NCBI GenBank assembly: GCA_002392965.1
Contig: DGIA01000010.1
Span: 65,722 to 129,721 of the forward strand
DNA: 64,000 bases
DNA from: Bacteroidales bacterium UBA3834
GTDB lineage: Bacteria > Bacteroidota > Bacteroidia > Bacteroidales > P3
Direction of reading: 5' to 3'
Shown: in pieces, positions 55,144-64,000 of the stretch
Position numbering within the stretch: the stretch's first letter is position 1
Layout of the letters: each line of letters opens with the position of its first letter
Made by a program: the position numbers and the translations under genes
Notes under the pieces: generated by a model
Databases searched by the model: none
Seen by the model: only the letters and a program-made list of their open reading frames with translations
Told to the model about the DNA's origin: nothing

Positions 55144-55229
55144 TAAATTGAAAATTGAGAAATCAACTCCAAAAAAGTTATGACTTTTTGGAAATTGATT
55201 CCAGAAAAGTCATATTTTTCGACACTAAA

Positions 55230-56471
55230 TTACATCCCTCCTTTCGTTAATTCATTATAAAGGGCAACACCCTTTACCGTCAACAGGTATTTCTGCCTTG
55301 GATGATTGGGTCGGTCGGGGTATTTCCGACGCACAAACTTCTCCTGTAATGCAGGTTCAAGATGGATATCCACAAAGCTCTGTCGGTGCTTGAGTTTTTT
55401 GATATTCATCATCTGGCTGATGCTTAATTCATCGTTGCCTATAATCCGCACAAGTTCAATGATGTCCTCGTTGTTTGTATAAAACTTACTATCTGGACTT
55501 AAGTTTATTATAGATGAGCTTATACGGTACTTGTACGGTGCTTGTTTGGTACTTGTACGGAGCTTGTCCTCTACCCGCTCATTAGTTATCTGGTGATTGG
55601 GCATCTCACCCTCAGGCATCTTCCACTCTTCCGGTGGATTAATCATCATATATCGATTCTTCAAGATGTTTTTCTCGCCAAGAAGCAAATTACGGAAGAA
55701 TCGAATCAAGAATAGCGGTTCATATTCTATGCCTTTGGCCACGTTGCGGTAGTTGGCTCGCACCAATGCGTTTCTGAAATACCACGAGTGGTTGGCAAAG
55801 AGGTCGTTGTTGACGCTGAAACCCAACATACGCAGATATTTGATGGTAAAGAGTGCAGTCGTTCGGGTATTTCCTTCCCTGAACGGGTGGATCTGCCATA
55901 TTCCCGACACAAAACGGGCAATATGTTCCACCATACTGTCTTTATCCATATCCGTATAAGAGAACTGACGTTCCCTATCCAGATCGTACTCCAGCGCCAT
56001 TCGCAAGTCTTGCCAGCGGCCATACAGTACAGAGTCGCCTCGCAACACCCATTCTTTTTTCGAGATGTCGTACTCGCGGAAATGCCCGGCATGTTTGAAC
56101 ACCCCTTCAAAGATAGCGCGATGGATGGCTGCCAATCCTGCCACGCTATAGGTGAAAGCATCTGTCTGCAGAAGTTTCGAAATGTTACTTGAAACCCTAT
56201 CGGCCTCTTCCTTGTCAGCATCATCGTCGTCGTGGGTAGTCTTCGTGATGTAGTATTGCTTCACCAATTCACGAGCCTCATCGATGGTAATTTCCCCTTC
56301 GATGTTTCTGCGGGCGGTATCTTGCAAATACTCCGATGTCTTTAATCCATCGACGGCCTGCAAGCCGATGGCAACGCTCCAAGCCTCCGCTCTTTCACGT
56401 TGTGCCGGCTCCCCCTGACGTATATACTCGTCAAAATCTATATATCCGTCCTTATCGTTGCTCATATTCAA
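55230..56471 (-). CDS. Fic/DOC-family protein with VbhA-like N-terminal domain and non-canonical Fic motif
   Basis: Fido core HPFREGNTRTTA, against the canonical HxFx(D/E)GNGRxxR. N-terminal QRERAEAWSVAIGLQAVDGL...GEITIDEA resembles the VbhA antitoxin fold. C-terminal winged-helix-like tail. Confidence 0.85.
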   Translation of the reverse strand: MNMSNDKDGYIDFDEYIRQGEPAQRERAEAWSVAIGLQAVDGLKTSEYLQDTARRNIEGEITIDEARELVKQYYITKTTHDDDDADKEEADRVSSNISKLLQTDAFTYSVAGLAAIHRAIFEGVFKHAGHFREYDISKKEWVLRGDSVLYGRWQDLRMALEYDLDRERQFSYTDMDKDSMVEHIARFVSGIWQIHPFREGNTRTTALFTIKYLRMLGFSVNNDLFANHSWYFRNALVRANYRNVAKGIEYEPLFLIRFFRNLLLGEKNILKNRYMMINPPEEWKMPEGEMPNHQITNERVEDKLRTSTKQAPYKYRISSSIINLSPDSKFYTNNEDIIELVRIIGNDELSISQMMNIKKLKHRQSFVDIHLEPALQEKFVRRKYPDRPNHPRQKYLLTVKGVALYNELTKGGM

Positions 56472-56530
56472 ATATTATCTTTCCAATTTTCACTTACACA
56501 TTCCCGCATTCAATATTATTATTTCCGGTG

Positions 56531-56538
56531 CAAAGATA
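56531..56538 (-). promoter_or_regulatory. -7 box (TATCTTTG on the minus strand) upstream of the Fic gene
   Basis: Exact match 59 nt upstream of ATG 56471. Confidence 0.55.
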
Positions 56539-56605
56539 CGGGTTTTATTTAAAATAAATATTCAATTTCACTCACGCATTTACACATTAACGCATTCTAT
56601 TTGAC

Positions 56606-56650
56606 CCCTTAACCGTGAACCCTTAACCATACCGCCGACCTCAGTTTAAG
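56606..56650. repeat. 14-bp-period CCTTAACC-type units plus tail ACCGCCGACCTCAGTTTAAG (copy 1)
   Basis: Related to 56701-56763. Confidence 0.8.
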
Positions 56651-56700
56651 ATTTCCCGCATTCTCTTTGAATCATGTGCTGTGGCGTCGGCTCTGCCGAC

Positions 56701-56763
56701 AACCATTAATCATGAACCGTGAATCATGAACCATTAATCATACTGCCCGACCTCGGTTCAAAC
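56701..56763. repeat. Tandem array, 14-bp period (AACCATTAATCATG / AACCGTGAATCATG), plus tail ACTGCCCGACCTCGGTTCAAAC (copy 2)
   Basis: Read directly. The tail matches the tail of copy 1 with a few substitutions. Confidence 0.85.
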
Positions 56764-56827
56764 AATCAATTGTTCAAGATTTATATTCCATCTATATAAC
56801 GGAGAAAGACGTAAAATATTGTGCAGC

Positions 56828-56854
56828 AAAAAGGACCGCCAAATAAGGCGGCCC
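56828..56854 (-). terminator. Intrinsic terminator about 100 nt downstream of the GIY-YIG gene
   Basis: The minus strand reads GGGCCGCC-TTATTT-GGCGGTCC followed by TTTTTGC. That gives an 8-bp stem including one G-U pair. Confidence 0.65.
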
Positions 56855-56952
56855 CGTTTCAATTAATAATAGGGTTTATAAAAGTATTACTTCTTTTCTT
56901 TCCAATAATCCGATTTCAGTAATCTTTCGTATTTCTCCCGTGTAATTGGTAA

Positions 56953-58236
56953 TTAATTATCAAATGATATTGAATATTGTGCAGGGTTGTTTGTGTATGA
57001 TGAAAACTGGTTCAGCCTCTTCACCGGAATGAACTTATCAATCCAACCATTCTTTCGGGATGCTTCATAGGCCCCCTTATATCTCTTGACAAATTCTGAA
57101 CGTGTTGAGCAATTCCGCGCAGCATCTCTGCATGCTTCGTATGTCCATTTTCGAGGAGATACTTTAGGAATAGGTTTCTCAAACCAGTAGTAATCATCTA
57201 ACCACTTGTTCTGGGATGCAGTTTGATAGGCATGATGGTTGCCTTTGCCAAAATCCCAACGTGTTTTGTACTTTCGTGCCTCATTATAGCATGTCTCGTA
57301 TGTCCATTTCCTATTGCCGAGAGTGCTGAACCAGACGTAATCATCAATCCATCCTTTTCGTAATGCTTTTGCATATGCCGATTGACAATTGGCGCTGAAT
57401 TCTGTTCTTGAATTGTATTTTCGGGCTTCATCATAACACTCTTTTTTTGTCCATTTACGTGCAGCACCTCCAATTGAACCATGGCCAATTCCTGTTTTAG
57501 CTCGATTCAACAAAATCCAACCATTCTTCTCATAATGCTTTACAACCTCATCTTCATATTTCTGAGCTTCGGCAACAGTACAATTATCATACCAATATTT
57601 AGGTTCGGGCACACTTGTTTTATGGTCTCTTGCAAAGATTAAAACCGGCGAATTTGACTTTCCAAACGAGTTGATTCCTAAGTGCTGCAAATGCCGTCTT
57701 TCTTTGTCATCGGTAAGACCGACATACACGACATTAAACTCCTTGAACTCATAAGAATATACACACCGTATTCTTTCCTTCAAGTCAATTTTTGAAGGAA
57801 TGAAATCCTCCATCCAGCCATTTTTAATGGCGATATAATAGACGAATTGATTCCCTTTGTAGAATTCAGTTCTGCTTGAATATTTTTTCGCCTCCTCCTT
57901 CACTCTATCATAGTCATTCCAGTATCCTTTTGGTTTGAATTGTAGAGTCATCCAATCGTAATCATCAAGCCAACCTCTTTGTAAAGCTTTTGCATATGCG
58001 CCACTACACTTTTTTTGGAATTCTAATCTAGTAGTATACTTTTGTGCTTCTTTATAGCAGGCGTCATACGTCCATCGTATTGAACGGAGGCCACGAACAA
58101 ACCAAGTGTAGTCTTTTATCCACTTATGTCTTATTGCAGCATTGTGTGCTCGAGGATGTTTTTCTGCAAATTCAGAAGAACATCTGCATGTTTTGGCCAA
58201 TTCATAACACTCGTCATATGTCCAAATGTGTCTCAT
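56953..58236 (-). CDS. GIY-YIG nuclease-domain protein flanked by six ~43-aa sequence repeats
   Basis: Core at aa 156-246 (nt 57499-57771): VYSYEFKEFNVVYVGLTDDKERRHLQH...YEDEVVKHYEKNGWILLN. Three repeats lie N-terminal to it and three C-terminal. Their consensus is (K/R)WTYE.C..EA.KY..R.EF.....AY..A...GW.DDY.WF. Confidence 0.7.
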   Translation of the reverse strand: MRHIWTYDECYELAKTCRCSSEFAEKHPRAHNAAIRHKWIKDYTWFVRGLRSIRWTYDACYKEAQKYTTRLEFQKKCSGAYAKALQRGWLDDYDWMTLQFKPKGYWNDYDRVKEEAKKYSSRTEFYKGNQFVYYIAIKNGWMEDFIPSKIDLKERIRCVYSYEFKEFNVVYVGLTDDKERRHLQHLGINSFGKSNSPVLIFARDHKTSVPEPKYWYDNCTVAEAQKYEDEVVKHYEKNGWILLNRAKTGIGHGSIGGAARKWTKKECYDEARKYNSRTEFSANCQSAYAKALRKGWIDDYVWFSTLGNRKWTYETCYNEARKYKTRWDFGKGNHHAYQTASQNKWLDDYYWFEKPIPKVSPRKWTYEACRDAARNCSTRSEFVKRYKGAYEASRKNGWIDKFIPVKRLNQFSSYTNNPAQYSISFDN

Positions 58237-58239
58237 ATC

Positions 58240-58707
58240 CTATTCTCCTTTCTTCACAAAGTCCAGTTGCATTCCCAAAGCAGAAGCGATACGACAAAGA
58301 ATGTCTAATCCTGGGGAATATTTACCCTGTTCAATACGGCTCATGTTGGCAGGTGTAATACCCGCTTTCTGAGCAACTGTTTTTGCATCCAAGCCTTGCT
58401 CTTCCCGTAATTCTTTTATCCTATGCCCTATACGCTCGCGGTCGGCATTTCTATCTTGACCTGCGAACATTGGCATTTCATAACCAAGAACGTGAAGTTG
58501 GCGTGTGAGATAATTGAAATAATCATCTCGCTCTAATTTGAAATAATTGTCAGTAATTGTACAAATTGCATCTGAATATTCTTTTGATAGAAGTAGTGGC
58601 ATTGTACTACTGAATCCGATAATGTAAACACCTCCTTGTGGGTGTTCTACCCTAACTTGCGAAGTTCCGTTCTTCGCTTCTTGCATTGATAAAATCTTTG
58701 TTTCCAT
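58240..58707 (-). CDS. XRE-family helix-turn-helix regulator with unassigned ~85-aa N-terminal domain
   Basis: C-terminal HTH_XRE: IGHRIKELREEQGLDAKTVAQKAGITPANMSRIEQGKYSPGLDILCRIASALG. Its stop lies 3 nt before the GIY-YIG start. Confidence 0.8.
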   Translation of the reverse strand: METKILSMQEAKNGTSQVRVEHPQGGVYIIGFSSTMPLLLSKEYSDAICTITDNYFKLERDDYFNYLTRQLHVLGYEMPMFAGQDRNADRERIGHRIKELREEQGLDAKTVAQKAGITPANMSRIEQGKYSPGLDILCRIASALGMQLDFVKKGE

Positions 58708-58755
58708 TACGATACGTTTTTAATGTGTTCGACACTTATATAATGAAATTCGATG

Positions 58756-58763
58756 CAAAGATA
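58756..58763 (-). promoter_or_regulatory. -7 box (TATCTTTG on the minus strand) upstream of the XRE / GIY-YIG gene pair
   Basis: Exact match 48 nt upstream of ATG 58707. Confidence 0.55.
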
Positions 58764-58842
58764 CGAATAATTATCAAATTAGATAATTGTTTTAAGTATT
58801 TTTAATATTGAAAAACGTGAAGTAAAATACAGCCAATATCCC

Positions 58843-60015
58843 TTAGAACAACTTTCCCCTTTTTCCAAACGCCTTTTCGTATTCCTCTTTCAGATTATCT
58901 TTTGTAAGCGGTTCTTTCTCTTGCTCAATCTTACGGAGGCGGAGTTCGATGGCTCTTTTGCTACGGTCAAATAGTTTGGCCAACTCCTCAATGGTTGTCC
59001 TTTTCATAAACAAAGTCCATAATTTCTCGTCGTCCCCTGCCGTCCATTTTGCACCGTGATTGGCATACTTCTGACGCATTTTGTTTTCTGATGATGGTGA
59101 TGGCGACTCGGGGTTTGGGCATTCCTTCTTTGTCGAATAACTTTGCTTACTGGGTATCACGCCACGGACACCACCTTTGGGATTTGGTACATCGCCGTTG
59201 TAGCGAGGTATCAAGTGCATGTGGACGTGAAAGACCGATTGGCCAGCGGCTTCTCCCACGTTTATTCCGACATTATATCCGTCAGGATGGAAACGTTCAT
59301 CCACTTTCTGCCTGACGTATTGCAGCATCACGTTCATTGCTTCTCGCTCGTGGTGCGTGAGGTCGAAATAAGACGCGACATGCCGTTTGGGAACGATGAG
59401 CGCGTGCCCAGGAGAAACTGGGTAACCATCATAGAAGGCCACACAAGTAGCCGTCTCGCATATCACTTCCACCCGACGAGCCAACCTACAGAACGGGCAG
59501 GTCTCTCCTTCGGTGCGGGGAAGCTTGTTGAAATGATTGTATTGGTATAGTTCATAGGAACTGTTACTCACCAAACTCTTATAGGGTAGCTTTACGTTGC
59601 ATTGGTAGGTGTACTGTTTATGGATGGCATGAAGCCGGAAGCCTTCTTCCTCCAAGTCGCGACGAACTGCATAATAGGCCGTTCCCGTTGGCTTCAGCAA
59701 ATTCGAGACATTCATCAACACCTCCGCCTGTGCGTAAGGTTCAAGAACATTAAGAACATAATTGCAGATGATGGTGTCGAATTGTCCTGTGGGATAATCG
59801 GGGCGATAATAATAGTCGTATCCGACAATATCCAAACCTTGCCGTTTCAACTCATCCGTATCATATCCAAAACCACATCCGAAGTCGAGGATGCGACCTT
59901 TCAGAAGTCCTTTGCCCAAAAGATAACGTGTGGGAACAGATAGGTCTGTCCGCTTGATGGCAGTCAAATATGGATGGTTTATCTTCTCTGGCTCTATGTG
60001 TGTCAGTTTCTCCAT
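58843..60015 (-). CDS. Fusion protein: class I SAM-methyltransferase, histidine-triad (HIT) hydrolase/transferase and C-terminal HTH-like tail
   Basis: MTase motif I ILDFGCGFGYD (nt 59860-59892). HIT block CPFC...HALIVPKRH...HVHMHLIPR (HxHxHxx at nt 59206-59229). Tail AKWTAGDDEKLW..IEELAKLFDRSKRAIELRLRKI is Myb/SANT- or sigma-r4-like. Confidence 0.8.
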   Translation of the reverse strand: MEKLTHIEPEKINHPYLTAIKRTDLSVPTRYLLGKGLLKGRILDFGCGFGYDTDELKRQGLDIVGYDYYYRPDYPTGQFDTIICNYVLNVLEPYAQAEVLMNVSNLLKPTGTAYYAVRRDLEEEGFRLHAIHKQYTYQCNVKLPYKSLVSNSSYELYQYNHFNKLPRTEGETCPFCRLARRVEVICETATCVAFYDGYPVSPGHALIVPKRHVASYFDLTHHEREAMNVMLQYVRQKVDERFHPDGYNVGINVGEAAGQSVFHVHMHLIPRYNGDVPNPKGGVRGVIPSKQSYSTKKECPNPESPSPSSENKMRQKYANHGAKWTAGDDEKLWTLFMKRTTIEELAKLFDRSKRAIELRLRKIEQEKEPLTKDNLKEEYEKAFGKRGKLF

Positions 60016-61079
60016 AGTTCGAATCCCATGTTTTGTGCAATTTGGTTCATCGGGTTAAATGTACGGGCAAAGCAGCTCCGTAGTGTTGTATTATCCATCT
60101 GGATCAACTCTTGTGGTGTGCATCCAAGAGTGATGTAGTCCTCAAGTATTTCTTGCCCACGATAGTTCTCCTTGATACAAACACGAACAGCATTTTGTTG
60201 TGTGGTTGCAAGTTTCAACAGGTATTGGTCAAGGTCGGGTAAACGGTCGCCCTTTGAAGAGTTTACGCTGCCGTCGGCAGGAACAAGGTTCCACAGCAGA
60301 TTGTGCGAAACGAAACTCCATGGGATAAAATGGTCAAGGTCGTAATTGCCAACCACGATTGGCTTGTTGGTATAGATACATCTTTGATTATTGGAATGTT
60401 CGAGTACGAAATCCCAATAATTACGCTGCCGAGTTAAAGTTTGTCGGCTTTCTGATTTTATCAGTTTGCTGGCAATATTTGGCACATTAGGATTGCGTGC
60501 TTGTAGGAATGTTGAGAGATTCCAGTATGCATAGTCCTTTAATATGACGTAATTCTCTTTTAGATATGGGAGCCAACGTGAGTTCAATTCAACCCAAATC
60601 GTATCTTCGTCCTTAGTAAGTTTATATAGGCAATTGTTTTCAAGAGATTGCGAGCGGCGCATTATCTCTTTAGTGTCAGCAATATCAATCCACGGACGCA
60701 TGAACCAATAGGGTACGTTCTTAGGAAGAAAACCAAGTGTTTGTCTGACTAGTGTGTCATTCTTGTGTGAGTGCAACCACTTGCGTAGTTCGTTAAGGTT
60801 AATGTTCATTGGTAATTGATGCACTTCTTGAAGGGATATGATTGCATCTCGCAAAGAATCGCTTTTGCCGAACGATAACCGGAAATAACTCACGGGATAC
60901 CATGCATTGGCGACCATTTCCACCATGATGTCCCATATGTTCATTCGCGTCATATCATTCTTGACGTATAGGTCAAGAATTCCCATGAACCAATAAAACT
61001 TATAGGTGGCTGACGTATTCTTGAAAATGCGCGTCAACGGTTCAATCGTGAGAGTATTAGATGTCGGCAAGGTGTTCAT
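60003..61079 (-). CDS. HNH (His-Me finger) endonuclease-domain protein with unassigned ~230-aa N-terminal domain
   Basis: CIYTNKPIVVGNYDLDHFIPWSFVSHNLLWNLVPADGSVNSSKGDR (nt 60237-60383) fits the HNH/His-Me pattern. N-terminal ATYKFYWFMGILDLY... is unrecognised. Overlaps the downstream gene by 13 nt. Confidence 0.75.
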   Translation of the reverse strand: MNTLPTSNTLTIEPLTRIFKNTSATYKFYWFMGILDLYVKNDMTRMNIWDIMVEMVANAWYPVSYFRLSFGKSDSLRDAIISLQEVHQLPMNINLNELRKWLHSHKNDTLVRQTLGFLPKNVPYWFMRPWIDIADTKEIMRRSQSLENNCLYKLTKDEDTIWVELNSRWLPYLKENYVILKDYAYWNLSTFLQARNPNVPNIASKLIKSESRQTLTRQRNYWDFVLEHSNNQRCIYTNKPIVVGNYDLDHFIPWSFVSHNLLWNLVPADGSVNSSKGDRLPDLDQYLLKLATTQQNAVRVCIKENYRGQEILEDYITLGCTPQELIQMDNTTLRSCFARTFNPMNQIAQNMGFELWRN

Positions 61080-61086
61080 TTGAATT

Positions 61087-61947
61087 TTAATTCTTTAAAT
61101 GCTCATAAAGCTTAAGCCTCAGCACCTCGCCATTCTCAAACTCAAATTGGAACTTATTGCGATTGAACCTCGGATTGTTCTTGTGGATAATCCTATGGTA
61201 GTTGGGGCTGATAATAATGATGTTTGTGGAGTCGTTGTTCTGCGAACGGGTGAAATAATCAATGTGGTGTGCTTCTACTACACTATCTCCATATTCATCG
61301 CCAATTTTCTCGCCGCTAATTTCGTCGCGATAGTTGTAGAAACGCTTCAATGTTAGGATGATGCTGCGGTCAATCCTGCGATACTTCACCAGACGTTGTT
61401 TCTCTTCAACCGAAGCTGTTTTGTCTGCCATAAAGAATTTGTCGTCATCACTTTGCTCAAATAATTCTTCGGGCATATCTCTAAGTCGATTGGCAACTTG
61501 TTTAAACTCGGTATTGGGACAACACTCCATACAGAGAACATCGGAGTTGGGTGTAAGGTATAGCCGGATATATTCATGTATATCGTTTGGAAGCATGAGC
61601 TGGCGATGGTGATTCTCCTTCAGTTGACGCTTGGTGGATAGGTAAGAATAACTCTCGTGAAAGATACTGCGGAGCTTGGCAACTATTGGCGAGGTTGTGG
61701 AATATCGAATCTGTATAATATCTTTATGGCCAGGATACTTTCGTTGGTCGAAATTTTGATTCTTTAGAATTGCATCGAAAAACTCTCCGTCAATTAGTAT
61801 CTTTATCTGTTTTCCGGCTCCGTGTTTCAAAATGGATGCATCCCATTCCTTGAAGCGAACATAGACAGAAATGGGTATTGCCAGACCTTCGTTAAGGAGA
61901 GACCAGTTTACATCTTTCTGCAAAATAAAACCATCATCGTAATCCAT
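61087..61947 (-). CDS. HNH endonuclease with unassigned ~185-aa N-terminal (possibly DNA-binding) domain
   Basis: C-terminal VVEAHHIDYF...NIIIISPNYHRIIH (nt 61180-61380) is a McrA-type HNH. The usual Cys pair is absent (RFYNYRDEISGE). Start set at ATG 61947 because the track's extension to 62136 crosses the -7 box at 61994-62001. Confidence 0.75.
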   Translation of the reverse strand: MDYDDGFILQKDVNWSLLNEGLAIPISVYVRFKEWDASILKHGAGKQIKILIDGEFFDAILKNQNFDQRKYPGHKDIIQIRYSTTSPIVAKLRSIFHESYSYLSTKRQLKENHHRQLMLPNDIHEYIRLYLTPNSDVLCMECCPNTEFKQVANRLRDMPEELFEQSDDDKFFMADKTASVEEKQRLVKYRRIDRSIILTLKRFYNYRDEISGEKIGDEYGDSVVEAHHIDYFTRSQNNDSTNIIIISPNYHRIIHKNNPRFNRNKFQFEFENGEVLRLKLYEHLKN

Positions 61948-61993
61948 CAGAGTTGCATATTTCTGCTGCGTTTCATTTCTTTTTTTCAATCTG

Positions 61994-62001
61994 CAAAGAT
62001 A
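61994..62001 (-). promoter_or_regulatory. -7 box (TATCTTTG on the minus strand) upstream of the HNH / HNH / MTase-HIT operon
   Basis: Exact match 46 nt upstream of ATG 61947. A CAAA (the -33 TTTG on the minus strand) lies about 20 nt further upstream. Confidence 0.55.
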
Positions 62002-62225
62002 CACATTATTTCTGAATCGGCAAAAAATAATTATTCCTATATATCGTGATTGTGCTTCCTGACGTCCATCTTCCAGTTCCATTTCCCTAAGCGCTTCGGC
62101 AAAATCCTCATAGTGAGCATGCTCCGCAACGAGCACCTCGCCATCCTCTCTTCCCTCAAATCATACCGCAAACTCTATAAGCCTCGTAGAATGAGGAACT
62201 TGAATGAGTAAACGAAACAAAAAAT

Positions 62226-62372
62226 CTGACAGTCTGACAATCTGACAATCAAAAAAAAGATACCTGACACCTCTTTATATAATATATAATTAATTAATAA
62301 TTAATAATATATATAAAGAATAGAGGGTTTGTCACCCCTCAAAAATAGACTGTCAGACTGTCAGACTGTCAG
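62226..62372. repeat. About 147-bp imperfect palindrome: octamer arrays (CTGACAGT x3 / GACTGTCA x3) around an AT-only core
   Basis: CTGACAGTCTGACA is the exact reverse complement of TGTCAGACTGTCAG. The inner arms CCTCTTTATATA... / ...TATATAAAGAATAGAGG flank the core TAATTAATTAATAATTAATAATATATA. Confidence 0.9.
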
Positions 62373-62691
62373 AAATTAACCCATCAAATTCACCTAAAAG
62401 GCAATTATTCAATGAAATACGACATCACCAAACCCAAGACACCCATGATACCATCCCTCGGAAAAGGGTCCTTCACACCCCGCCAGGTTCAGGCGGTCGT
62501 CGAGTGGCTGGGAGCCCCGTAGGCTCCCCAATCTACCGCCATCGTCACTTATCGGCAGCCATCCGCCCCCATCGGCAGAACCCCACGGAAAAAGGTCGTA
62601 CTTTTGCATCGTGGTTCAGTCGGGAGGGTGCCGGCAAGGTTGTGGCTAACCTAGGTCAACCTTAGCTCTAACCTGTGGAATCCTTGGCACA

Positions 62692-62823
62692 TAACGAAAA
62701 CGAAAACCAAAACGATAACGAAAACGAATTAACCAAAACCAATACGATAACGAAAACAAATTAACGAAAACCAAAACGAAAACGATTTAACGAAAACCAT
62801 AACCAATAACGAAAACGAAAACG
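62692..62823. repeat. Low-complexity array of AACGAAAAC / AACCAAAAC / GATAACG units (about 6-bp base period, about 30-bp higher order)
   Basis: Read directly. Track ORF 62729-62959 (minus strand) merely reads through it. Confidence 0.9.
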
Positions 62824-62906
62824 GGATCCCAAGAATAAATTCAATCATCAAATTAGTGACCTGTGAACTGTGACCAGAGAGGTGGGAGAGGTGGTGAATA
62901 GTGAGG

Positions 62907-62960
62907 GAGTTAAAGAAGTTAAAGAAGTGATCGCGCTTCGCGCTAGAAGTTAAAGACAAT
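62907..62960. repeat. Second copy of the about 54-bp GTTAAAGAA / GC-hairpin element
   Basis: GAGTTAAAGAAGTTAAAGAAGTGATCGCGCTTCGCGCTAGAAGTTAAAGACAAT, compared with 18538-18593. It is flanked by direct repeats AGTGACCTGTGA..CCAGAGAG at 62855 and 62967. Confidence 0.9.
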
Positions 62961-63044
62961 GGCAGTAGTGACCTGTGACCAGAGAGTGGTTAACTAGTGA
63001 AGACAAATGAGGGAATGCGGTTGTTAATGTGTTATTGCGTTATT

Positions 63045-63190
63045 GTGTTTGCTCCAGCCCTCTGCACTTGGCCGCGCTAACGTCGCAGGCCGTGTCTCCA
63101 ATGGAACCAGACAGAATGTGTTTGCTCCAGCCCCTTACGCGATGCCGAGCTTGCGTCGCAGGCCGTGTCTCCGATGGAGCCAGGCAGAGT
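63045..63190. repeat. Two tandem 73-bp units (GTGTTTGCTCCAGCCC...GTCGCAGGCCGTGTCTCC.ATGGA.CCAG.CAGA.T)
   Basis: Units at 63045-63117 and 63118-63190. A partial third copy lies at about 63328-63387. Confidence 0.9.
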
Positions 63191-63792
63191 GTGGGAATGC
63201 TTTTTTAATGTGTTTTTCGCTTGGCTATTTTTTATTCAGCGGTGCTGACTCGCTATATATAATCATTATTAGCGGTGCTATTCACTGCATTCTGTTTTAT
63301 TTCCAAGGTGTTCATCACCCTTTCAGGGGTCGCAGGCATACCACGCAGGCCGTGTCTCCGATGGAGCCAGGCAGAGTGTGGGAATGCGTGAATTTGGGAA
63401 TATGTTAATGTGTGAATTGGTTTAATGGGATGAATGGGCGAGATGGGGATGGGGTTGGGGTTGGACGGCCGATAACGGCCGCCCATGGGTTGAGAGAGGG
63501 TTTTTAATTCGCGCGGCGCGAGGGTGTAATTTTTGATTTTTTTAGGTTGAAAGGGGTGAAAAAATTAACATGTGTTATGAAAAAAAGTATTAAAAAGTGA
63601 TATGGTGTTATCTGTTTGATATATTGTGTGTTGTGGTGGGGTTGAATATGCGAGAAGGAGGCGTTGAAATGTTAAATTATAGTTAAATAATCTGTGCCCG
63701 CCATTTAGCCCTTATTTTATATAATGACGCGTCGGGGTAGTAGCAACGGTATATCTTTAGGCCGGAGGAATGGCCGCCTCCATCAGGGTTTG

Positions 63793-63886
63793 TATATGGT
63801 TTCTATATGCTAACGTATATGCTTGGTATATGCTAAGTATATGGTAAGTATATGCTAACTATATGCTGGCAATATGCTATAGATAT
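63793..63886. repeat. Tandem array, 11-bp period (TATATGCTAAG-type), about 8 units
   Basis: Read directly. Lies about 50 nt upstream of the partial ORF at 63938. Confidence 0.9.
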
Positions 63887-63937
63887 CCGATGTCGCTGCC
63901 GGGAAACAAAAAACATTAACCATTAAAAAACAAAAAA

Positions 63938-64000
63938 ATGTCAAAAACTAGTAAAAATGTCCTCGGCGATCAAAGAGGACGGATTGGAAAAGTAGTCGGC
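63938..64000 (+). CDS. 5' fragment of an ORF running off the window (MSKTSKNVLGDQRGRIGKVVG...), possibly DUF6266-like
   Basis: ATG at 63938 with 21 open codons to the window edge. The G..G..GKVG.VVG-like N-terminus is reminiscent of a Bacteroidales DUF family (weak memory). Confidence 0.3.
   Translation, partial: MSKTSKNVLGDQRGRIGKVVG

Follow-up and report, generated by a model that had tools for sequence, protein, structure and literature searches.

What a gene for a small XRE-family regulator is doing directly in front of a gene for a large, repeat-bearing nuclease is the question raised by a stretch of 64,000 nucleotides (nt) from Bacteroidales bacterium UBA3834 (contig DGIA01000010.1, positions 65,722 to 129,721), here called the window. 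A preliminary description of this DNA had likened the two genes to toxin/regulator or defence cassettes. With modest confidence we arrived at a different answer: the window nuclease is homing-endonuclease-like and fills an exchangeable slot in a small mobile cassette headed by the gene of an XRE repressor. This degree of confidence applies to the joint mechanism, i.e., a site-directed nuclease, a target read by its repeats, repression by the XRE protein, spread of the cassette as a unit and exchange of the nuclease. Both minus-strand open reading frames were found where they had been placed, and so was the gap of 3 nt between them: the XRE stop codon TAG (58240-58242) is followed by GAT and then by the nuclease ATG at 58236. 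The two genes and their domains are listed here (aa, amino acids; HMM, hidden Markov model; R1 to R6, repeats).

58240-58707, minus strand: XRE-family regulator, 155 aa (Pfam HTH_31/HTH_3 and AlphaFold model)
58444-58707, minus strand: N-terminal domain of the XRE protein, aa 1-88 (beta-beta-beta-alpha-alpha-beta in the AlphaFold model)
58258-58431, minus strand: helix-turn-helix (HTH) of the XRE protein, aa 93-150 (Pfam HTH_31 1.5e-12, HTH_3 2.5e-12)
56953-58236, minus strand: GIY-YIG nuclease, 427 aa, made up of three repeats, the core, three repeats and a short C-terminal tail
58093-58230 (R1), 57943-58080 (R2), 57787-57927 (R3), minus strand: N-terminal repeats (HMM and model)
57460-57786, minus strand: GIY-YIG catalytic core, aa 151-259, with Y160, Y162, Y171, G173, R181, H185, E228 and N244
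57322-57459 (R4), 57175-57312 (R5), 57016-57153 (R6), minus strand: C-terminal repeats (HMM and model)

The core of the 427-aa protein exhibits the motifs VYSY (aa 159-162) and YVG (aa 171-173) together with R181, H185, E228 and N244. Within 27 diverse cores, Y160, Y171, G173, R181, E228 and N244 were invariant and H185 nearly so; these seven residues were conserved to at least 90% across 120 full-length relatives. The preliminary description had named a core devoid of the conserved arginine or glutamate, together with a repeat unit matching a known non-DNA-binding repeat, as grounds against its interpretation; R181 and E228 belong to the invariant set. The Pfam model GIY-YIG (PF01541) gave 14.8 bits on the 427-aa protein, below its gathering cut-off of 22.6, and direct scans against Pfam, NCBIfam, PADLOC and PDB sequences yielded nothing significant, the only direct match being phrog_20046 (1.4e-39), which is of unknown function. 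The PF01541 threshold was passed by relatives of the protein, namely P0009 (29.5 bits) and a Rhizobium phage protein (30.2 bits). When a profile of the core was compared with PDB, the catalytic domain of I-TevI came first (1mk0, E 2e-4), followed by UvrC, T4 EndoII, UPF0213 and SLX1, and nothing outside the GIY-YIG superfamily was retrieved. In the HMMER alignment with I-TevI the tyrosine, arginine and histidine columns coincided.

The AlphaFold model of the nuclease (predicted local distance difference test, pLDDT, 83.5; predicted template modelling score, pTM, 0.35) showed the core elements in the order beta-beta-alpha-alpha-beta-alpha, with strands at aa 155-164, 169-175 and 213-220 and helices at aa 178-185, 197-204 and 221-237. 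Because the nuclease has many domains, Foldseek E-values of the whole model against PDB were poor, and the target-normalised template modelling (TM) scores of domain-sized matches were used in their place. The best of these matches were I-TevI (0.64-0.70) and UvrC-N (0.61), while the structural neighbours in BFVD were viral GIY-YIG homing endonucleases. The relatives that pass the Pfam model, the conserved residues, the profile match in PDB, the modelled fold and the Foldseek and BFVD neighbours make the membership of the 427-aa protein in the GIY-YIG superfamily secure, and cleavage is predicted. The assignment made in the preliminary description was thus corroborated, I-TevI being the best PDB match by profile as well as by fold. 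The family of the nuclease is large (998 matches in a word-indexed search), and the whole protein has an isoelectric point (pI) of 9.4.

The six repeats also lie where they had been described, three on either side of the core (aa 3-48, 53-98, 104-150, 260-305, 309-354 and 362-407). They share 27-52% pairwise identity over 44-46 columns, and a repeat HMM built mostly from other proteins picked up only these six stretches in the six frames of the window, with 43-69 bits. Each repeat was modelled as three short helices (e.g., positions 7-14, 20-26 and 28-36) with a per-repeat pLDDT of about 90. A solenoid, which the preliminary description had considered besides separate modules, was rejected, as the model gives separate beads and a low pTM; in it the repeats are independent three-helix beads on a string. 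Positions W3, C8, A12, Y15, F21, A28, Y29, A32, W37, L38, Y41 and W43, with the buried aromatic and Ala residues among them, are conserved and build the module core. Lys or Arg predominates at positions 13, 14, 16 and 18, and the hypervariable positions 22-27, 30, 31, 33 and 34 make up the exposed face of helix 3 and the loop before it. Searches of the repeat profile against PDB sequences and of single repeats against the Pfam copy used gave chance-level matches only; we found no name for the repeat in that copy, no solved structure and no paper. PF26058 occurs in precomputed Pfam annotations of relatives and is absent from the Pfam copy and the papers searched; it may be a recent Pfam model of the repeat.

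To take a census of the module, a profile of the six window repeats was run against 1.84 billion representative proteins (50%-identity clusters). It retrieved 7,558 clusters at E <= 1e-3 and 5,011 at E <= 1e-10, with up to 21 repeats in a single protein. The same GIY-YIG core was present in 129 of the 139 new top representatives. The number of repeats before and after the core varies (3+3, 5+5, 7+4, 11+0, 0+11), and in the close relative P0011 R5, and nothing else, has been cleanly deleted. There are relatives made up of repeats alone, which may be fragments, and relatives with a DUF723 module at the N-terminus. The sole non-nuclease partner of the repeat in the top 150 representatives was a helicase-methyltransferase, P0287 (1086 aa), in which five repeats are fused to SNF2/ResIII helicase, Helicase_C and Methyltransf_8 domains. 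A 790-aa viral protein (IMG/VR contig 3300028805_000632, locus L048, 3595-5967) joins seven repeats to about four DUF723/DUF4379 zinc-ribbon modules and has a C-terminal domain that by eye is PD-(D/E)XK-like. Thus, the repeat is shuffled with other nuclease and binding modules. Barth et al. (PMC10448857) describe DUF723 and DUF4379 as domains with which phage homing endonucleases of the T5orf172 type bind DNA and which occur in them repeatedly. Since the repeat is fused to the helicase-methyltransferase and to DUF723/DUF4379 modules, it is probably a nucleic-acid-targeting module, and its basic charge, its hypervariable exposed positions and its domain partners point to sequence-specific DNA binding. 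With these partners and a variable repeat number, the arrayed DNA-reading role proposed in the preliminary description is plausible as a prediction.

For the regulator, a C-terminal XRE HTH and an unassigned N-terminal domain had been described. This division held: Pfam places the HTH at aa 93-150, and the N-terminal ~88 aa had no match in Pfam or PDB sequences, a search with an N-domain profile included. The AlphaFold model of the XRE protein reached a pLDDT of 92.8. In Foldseek searches C.AhdI, HipB, ClgR and C.BclI were the structures closest to the HTH, C.AhdI giving a target-normalised TM of 0.89 and a root mean square deviation (rmsd) of 0.6-0.8 Å. The N-domain is mildly acidic (pI 5.2) and was not found in phages. 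Against PADLOC the XRE protein matched generic HTH models only. Its family is compact, with 43 clusters that mostly share 78-96% identity with the protein of the window; a metagenome scan with the single XRE sequence returned four loci. The label HicB was not adopted for this protein, since the N-domain profile matched nothing and a comparison with E. coli HicB by hhalign covered no more than the HTH. In Foldseek the whole model aligned loosely with HicB3 (6u0i; 169 columns, E 1.7e-3).

Each XRE homologue with readable surroundings has a nuclease gene directly downstream. The chromosomal surroundings vary by locus (loci are numbered with the letter L), and so does the gene in the slot behind the XRE gene.

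Repeat-type GIY-YIG nuclease: window, L008, L009, L016, L017, L029
I-TevI-like GIY-YIG/NUMOD1 protein: L021, L031-34, L053
HNH_3 protein: L022/23, L027, L028, L030, L035-38, L052
CoiA_N protein: L024-26, where the XRE protein is only 43% identical

The XRE and nuclease genes, 3 nt apart in the window, overlap by 1 or 4 nt in other cassettes. When the window is compared with cassettes that hold other nucleases, DNA homology sets in ~85 nt ahead of the XRE start codon and ceases 5 nt short of the XRE stop codon, and the recombination breakpoint is in the last XRE codons. The length of the XRE protein, which differs at the C-terminus (155, 156 or 157 aa), tracks the type of the slot nuclease in the loci examined. 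For the I-TevI-like and the HNH_3 slot nucleases, phage homing-endonuclease relatives exist. The following elements frame the cassette.

58770-58787, no strand assigned: 18-bp perfect palindrome ATTATC-N6-GATAAT, candidate XRE operator, at the left edge of the conserved cassette DNA
58756-58763, minus strand: putative promoter -7 element TATCTTTG, 49 nt upstream of the XRE ATG
56889-56943, minus strand: 5' remnant of a third gene, right-hand conserved flank of the slot (compared with L027)
56824-56855, minus strand: intrinsic-terminator-like hairpin GGGGCCGCC-TTATTT-GGCGGTCC followed by TTTTT, G+C-rich and conserved in L016

The exact palindrome is unique in the window (0.07 occurrences expected by chance), and nine cassettes taken from various contexts preserve it with little or no change. 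The element TATCTTTG fits the Bacteroidetes -7 motif TAnnTTTG and was invariant in all nine aligned cassettes, in which the 5' untranslated region downstream of it was fully conserved as well; judged by the known Bacteroidetes consensus, it probably is a promoter. The pair has the -7 box and the hairpin with T-run that had been attributed to it as its own promoter and terminator. On the right-hand side, 49 nt of the remnant share 90% identity with the beginning of the gene behind the HNH_3 nuclease in L027; in the window the ATG of this gene is lost and the frame ends after 18 codons. The conserved left block and the right-hand remnant therefore indicate that the nuclease reading frame was replaced between two conserved flanks. 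A 17-nt direct repeat (15/17 identical) at the nuclease stop (56954-56970) and at the palindrome (58768-58784) also brackets the cassette. We judged it to be probably a chance occurrence because the right-hand copy is coding sequence conserved in solitary homologues.

Some of these loci disclosed further genes. The third gene, intact in L027 (2108-3157), codes for 349 aa; its product has a small HNH domain at the N-terminus and also contains a hydrophobic segment and, in tandem, four repeats of ~27 aa (STEGTTLEILERINHADVVKQAQRAGV). A CoiA_N-domain protein is the second gene after the NUMOD1 nuclease in L031 (7559-8650), and in L024 (7474-8976) the CoiA_N protein is itself the slot gene behind the 43%-identical XRE. 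In L017 (12111-14408, rumen metagenome-assembled genome RUG12008) the XRE/repeat-nuclease pair lies at the edge of a different low-GC island, which carries a 765-aa DUF3987 protein and looks like a distinct mobile element.

Outside the cassette, relatives of the nuclease at 56-72% identity are solitary genes set among housekeeping genes, with no adjoining XRE gene. One was found between an ABC/GntR operon and gldN genes, another between a lipoprotein gene (beside a diacylglycerol kinase gene) and a second lipoprotein gene, and a third one adjoins mreB. Where the flanks have 50-55% GC, these solitary genes have ~35%; they are therefore recent single-gene insertions. The hosts of the family are gut and rumen Bacteroidales chromosomes and large phages. 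In Rhizobium phages the query matched five places per genome; a DNA primase gene is flanked there by two GIY-YIG nuclease genes, one of which was examined and consists of the family core followed by three repeats. Members from Vibrio schizoT4 phages have three repeats, the core and two repeats; further members came from BcepSauron, Lak megaphages and IMG/VR contigs, one of them of 393 kb. Bacteroides jumbo phages are reported to be rich in stand-alone homing endonucleases, GIY-YIG enzymes included (PMC12880540). Such a distribution is what one would expect of free-standing homing-endonuclease genes. The suggestion of a dedicated regulator/toxin pair was not supported as put forward: the solitary relatives lack the XRE gene, and XRE genes of this one family also stand in front of nucleases from three further, unrelated families.

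We propose that the 427-aa protein would act as an active, sequence-tolerant, site-directed DNA endonuclease whose target would be read by the six three-helix modules. The cassette would comprise the palindromic operator, the promoter, the XRE gene, the nuclease gene and sometimes a third gene. The XRE protein, as a dimer, most likely represses the operon from the palindrome at the promoter of its gene. The coupled nuclease would thereby be held at a low level, in the manner of phage repressors and of the controller (C) proteins of restriction-modification systems; a neutralisation of the nuclease via protein contact is probably not involved. The cassette would spread as a unit, and recombination at the 3' end of its XRE gene would exchange the nuclease. 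It may persist because it is selfish, because it excludes or wards off phages and other mobile DNA, or for both reasons.

Several points weigh against this proposal. Cleavage, binding of DNA by the repeats and binding of the operator are all predictions, and mobility by homing is deduced from distribution and composition only. The presence of a nuclease downstream of every XRE homologue examined is easier to reconcile with two genes that function as a unit than with nothing more than a landing site, and the strongly conserved N-domain of the XRE protein might contact nucleases or sense a signal. The nuclease has no match in PADLOC-DB 2.0 at E 0.01, so that this library gives a defence role no support. 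Moreover, the core is central (aa 151-259) with modules on both sides, in which the protein differs from canonical GIY-YIG homing endonucleases, and no NUMOD module was matched in it by Pfam. In some relatives the core lies at one end (0+11, 11+0 and the Rhizobium phage protein).

The cassette is part of a region of distinct composition. On the minus strand between 55.2 and 62.1 kb there are six genes within a stretch of 39-47% GC, against ~54% in the rest of the window. Besides the XRE and nuclease genes they are:

61087-62136, minus strand: protein of 349 aa, HNH-like motif at the C-terminus, no match in Pfam
60003-61079, minus strand: HNH_4 protein, 358 aa (Pfam)
58843-60015, minus strand: methyltransferase-HIT fusion (MTase-HIT), 390 aa (Pfam)
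55230-56471, minus strand: Fic-domain protein, 413 aa (Pfam)

The final ~9 kb of the window (~55200-64000) has 41-46% GC compared to about 54% elsewhere, and this lower GC suggests a horizontally acquired island continuing past the window end. Between 62.1 and 64.0 kb, no long open reading frame and no Rfam or tRNA match was found. The nearest genome, the rumen assembly "uncultured Bacteroidetes bacterium RUG12227", contains the same island with a 96% identical nuclease and a 98% identical Fic protein, which suggests a rumen or gut member of the Bacteroidales as the source of the window. The Fic protein matches the PADLOC candidate defence family PDC-S72 (2e-123) and has a Fic-like_C domain and a weak VbhA-antitoxin-like N-terminal segment (E 0.008). 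Between the nuclease-gene terminator and the Fic gene, three tandem copies of a 14-nt unit, AACCATTAATCATG, are located at 56701-56742.

A five-gene system including the HNH_4/MTase-HIT operon upstream of the XRE gene had been considered possible. The genes for HNH_4 and MTase-HIT overlap (58843-61079), and the pair is ~80% identical in other genomes, where it is inserted at different chromosomal sites (L021, L053); we could match the pair to no described system. MTase-HIT precedes the XRE gene in the window/L008/L016, L021, L027, L029, L030 and L053, and so does HNH_4 where the contig reaches; these loci represent three nuclease types and at least three chromosomal contexts (window, L021, L053). 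Upstream of the XRE gene in L017, L022/23, L031-34, L035-38, L052 and L024-26, MTase-HIT/HNH_4 is absent. The methyltransferase domain is a generic S-adenosylmethionine-dependent one (Methyltransf_23) and belongs to no recognised DNA methyltransferase family; against PADLOC the operon gave weak matches only, to ThsC2 (HIT) and mad2. Being present in about half of the cassettes, the operon is a recurrent but not an obligatory associate. The suggestion of a five-gene system was thus half right: in the loci that could be read, the XRE gene is always accompanied by a nuclease gene, but of varying kind, and the operon adjoins about half of the cassettes, so that the pair is not, as had been allowed for, always apart from it. 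Against a five-gene unit speaks also that the conserved cassette DNA begins just 85 nt upstream of the XRE gene and includes a promoter of its own.

This distribution bears on the possibility that the locus is a defence or restriction system of four or five genes, in which the XRE protein would act as a C protein timing the nuclease, and MTase-HIT and HNH_4 would provide self-protection or a second effector. The low-GC island with its HNH proteins, the MTase-HIT fusion and the Fic protein of the PDC-S72 family would suit such a system, as would the structural closeness of the HTH to C.AhdI and C.BclI, the gene order M, C, R known from C-controlled restriction-modification operons and the recurrence of HNH_4/MTase-HIT/XRE/nuclease in the three contexts named. 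We nevertheless regard this explanation as unlikely. About half of the cassettes do without MTase-HIT and HNH_4, cassette homology begins only at -85 with the cassette's own promoter, the nuclease has no PADLOC match, and the nuclease is swapped while MTase-HIT stays ~80% identical, which is hard to square with a matched sequence specificity. Given the generic methyltransferase and a nuclease exchanged independently of MTase-HIT, classical restriction-modification in particular was downgraded.

The exchange of nucleases speaks as well against a type II toxin-antitoxin or addiction module, in which a HicB-like XRE antitoxin would bind and inhibit the nuclease toxin and autoregulate, loss of the cassette killing the cell. 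Such a module would account for a regulator gene that comes first and is translationally coupled to or overlaps the nuclease gene in all cassettes, and for the nuclease that accompanied every XRE gene of this family in the loci examined. The HTH is similar to those of antitoxins such as HipB and HigA, E. coli HicB has the same layout and a matching length, and the loose alignment with HicB3 and the mildly acidic N-domain point in the same direction. Yet the partners of XRE proteins 78-92% identical to that of the window come from three nuclease families unrelated to one another, and a 43%-identical homologue has a partner from a fourth; a specific neutralisation at the protein level is not expected to survive such swaps of the partner. 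The XRE-less nuclease homologues at 56-72% identity indicate that the enzyme is tolerated alone. Furthermore, the N-domain has no sequence similarity to HicB and no Pfam or PDB sequence match, and no HicA-like gene is present. On these grounds we consider a toxin-antitoxin module improbable. Very remote, finally, seems a domesticated, non-cutting derivative, i.e., a sequence-specific DNA binder such as a repressor derived from a homing endonuclease, comparable to CapR from T5orf172. The co-option of homing-endonuclease DNA-binding domains as regulators has a precedent (PMC10448857), and some relatives of the window protein are made of repeats only; these may, however, be fragments, and the catalytic residues are kept in the window protein, the 27 cores and the 120 relatives.

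The homing-endonuclease-like nuclease in an exchangeable, XRE-controlled slot thus remains our preferred explanation. It could be extended to a bolder proposal, which we think has a rather small chance of being correct as a whole: the repeat would be a programmable DNA-reading module, and the XRE cassette of rumen Bacteroidales a control platform that takes any family of the homing-endonuclease type. The exposed residues 22-27, 30, 31, 33 and 34 of each repeat would then specify a short stretch of bases, and arrays of 3 to 21 repeats would spell long targets, somewhat like TALE proteins. A dedicated expression-and-control cassette of this kind would form a modular selfish or defence element, in which the XRE N-domain might serve as a sensor or as a general nuclease inhibitor.

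With its 7,558 clusters at 50% identity, the repeat is one of the larger uncharacterised nuclease-attached repeat families. If it binds DNA in a modular way, this would explain how the nucleases change targets fast, and it could be of interest to designers of DNA-targeting proteins. The exchange of nucleases between fixed flanks is known from phage homing-endonuclease loci; the cassette provides a clean natural case in which whole nuclease genes are exchanged between fixed flanks in bacterial chromosomes, and it bears on the question of how cells tame or reuse homing endonucleases. The gene and its relatives can be annotated as GIY-YIG homing-endonuclease-like nucleases, no longer as hypothetical proteins.

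Four known systems lend themselves to comparison. HicB antitoxins have the same layout as the XRE protein, an N-terminal alpha/beta domain of ~85 aa (beta-beta-beta-alpha...beta) followed by a C-terminal XRE HTH, in line with the one loose Foldseek match. The window N-domain, however, has no detectable sequence similarity to theirs, a HicA partner is absent, the gene order is reversed relative to hicAB, and what the XRE gene is paired with is a DNA nuclease, not the same one in every cassette. With the C proteins C.AhdI and C.BclI the XRE protein shares a nearly identical HTH fold (rmsd 0.6-0.8 Å over 60-64 residues), a gene immediately upstream of and coupled to a nuclease gene, and a palindrome overlapping the promoter. 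Unlike these it has an additional 88-aa N-terminal domain, there is no evident cognate DNA methyltransferase, and the downstream nuclease is of the homing-endonuclease type and interchangeable.

The nuclease itself can be compared with the T5orf172 homing endonucleases (PMC10448857), which likewise belong to the GIY-YIG superfamily and carry tandem DNA-binding modules, in their case zinc-finger domains (CapR/DUF723/DUF4397). Recombination alters the number of these repeats, and the enzymes are located where genetic exchange begins and ends (Barth, Dunham and Seed 2023). Some relatives of the window nuclease possess DUF723, and the viral protein mentioned above unites seven repeats with DUF723/DUF4379. 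In contrast, the window repeat lacks zinc ligands and has an all-helical fold, the catalytic domain is I-TevI-like, and the hosts are Bacteroidales and their phages. From the phage homing endonucleases of the I-TevI/Seg type the window nuclease differs in that it is devoid of NUMOD/IENR modules and of a zinc-finger linker, and in that its modules flank the core on both sides while theirs are C-terminal only. The module of its family is an undescribed three-helix repeat of 45 aa in 3 to 21 copies, and the window gene is chromosomal and lies behind an XRE gene, being homing-like by distribution. It agrees with them in the catalytic fold and residues, I-TevI being the best PDB match, in the modular build of a nuclease plus separable binding modules, and in the occurrence of the genes as solitary units, multi-copy in large phages and beside essential genes.

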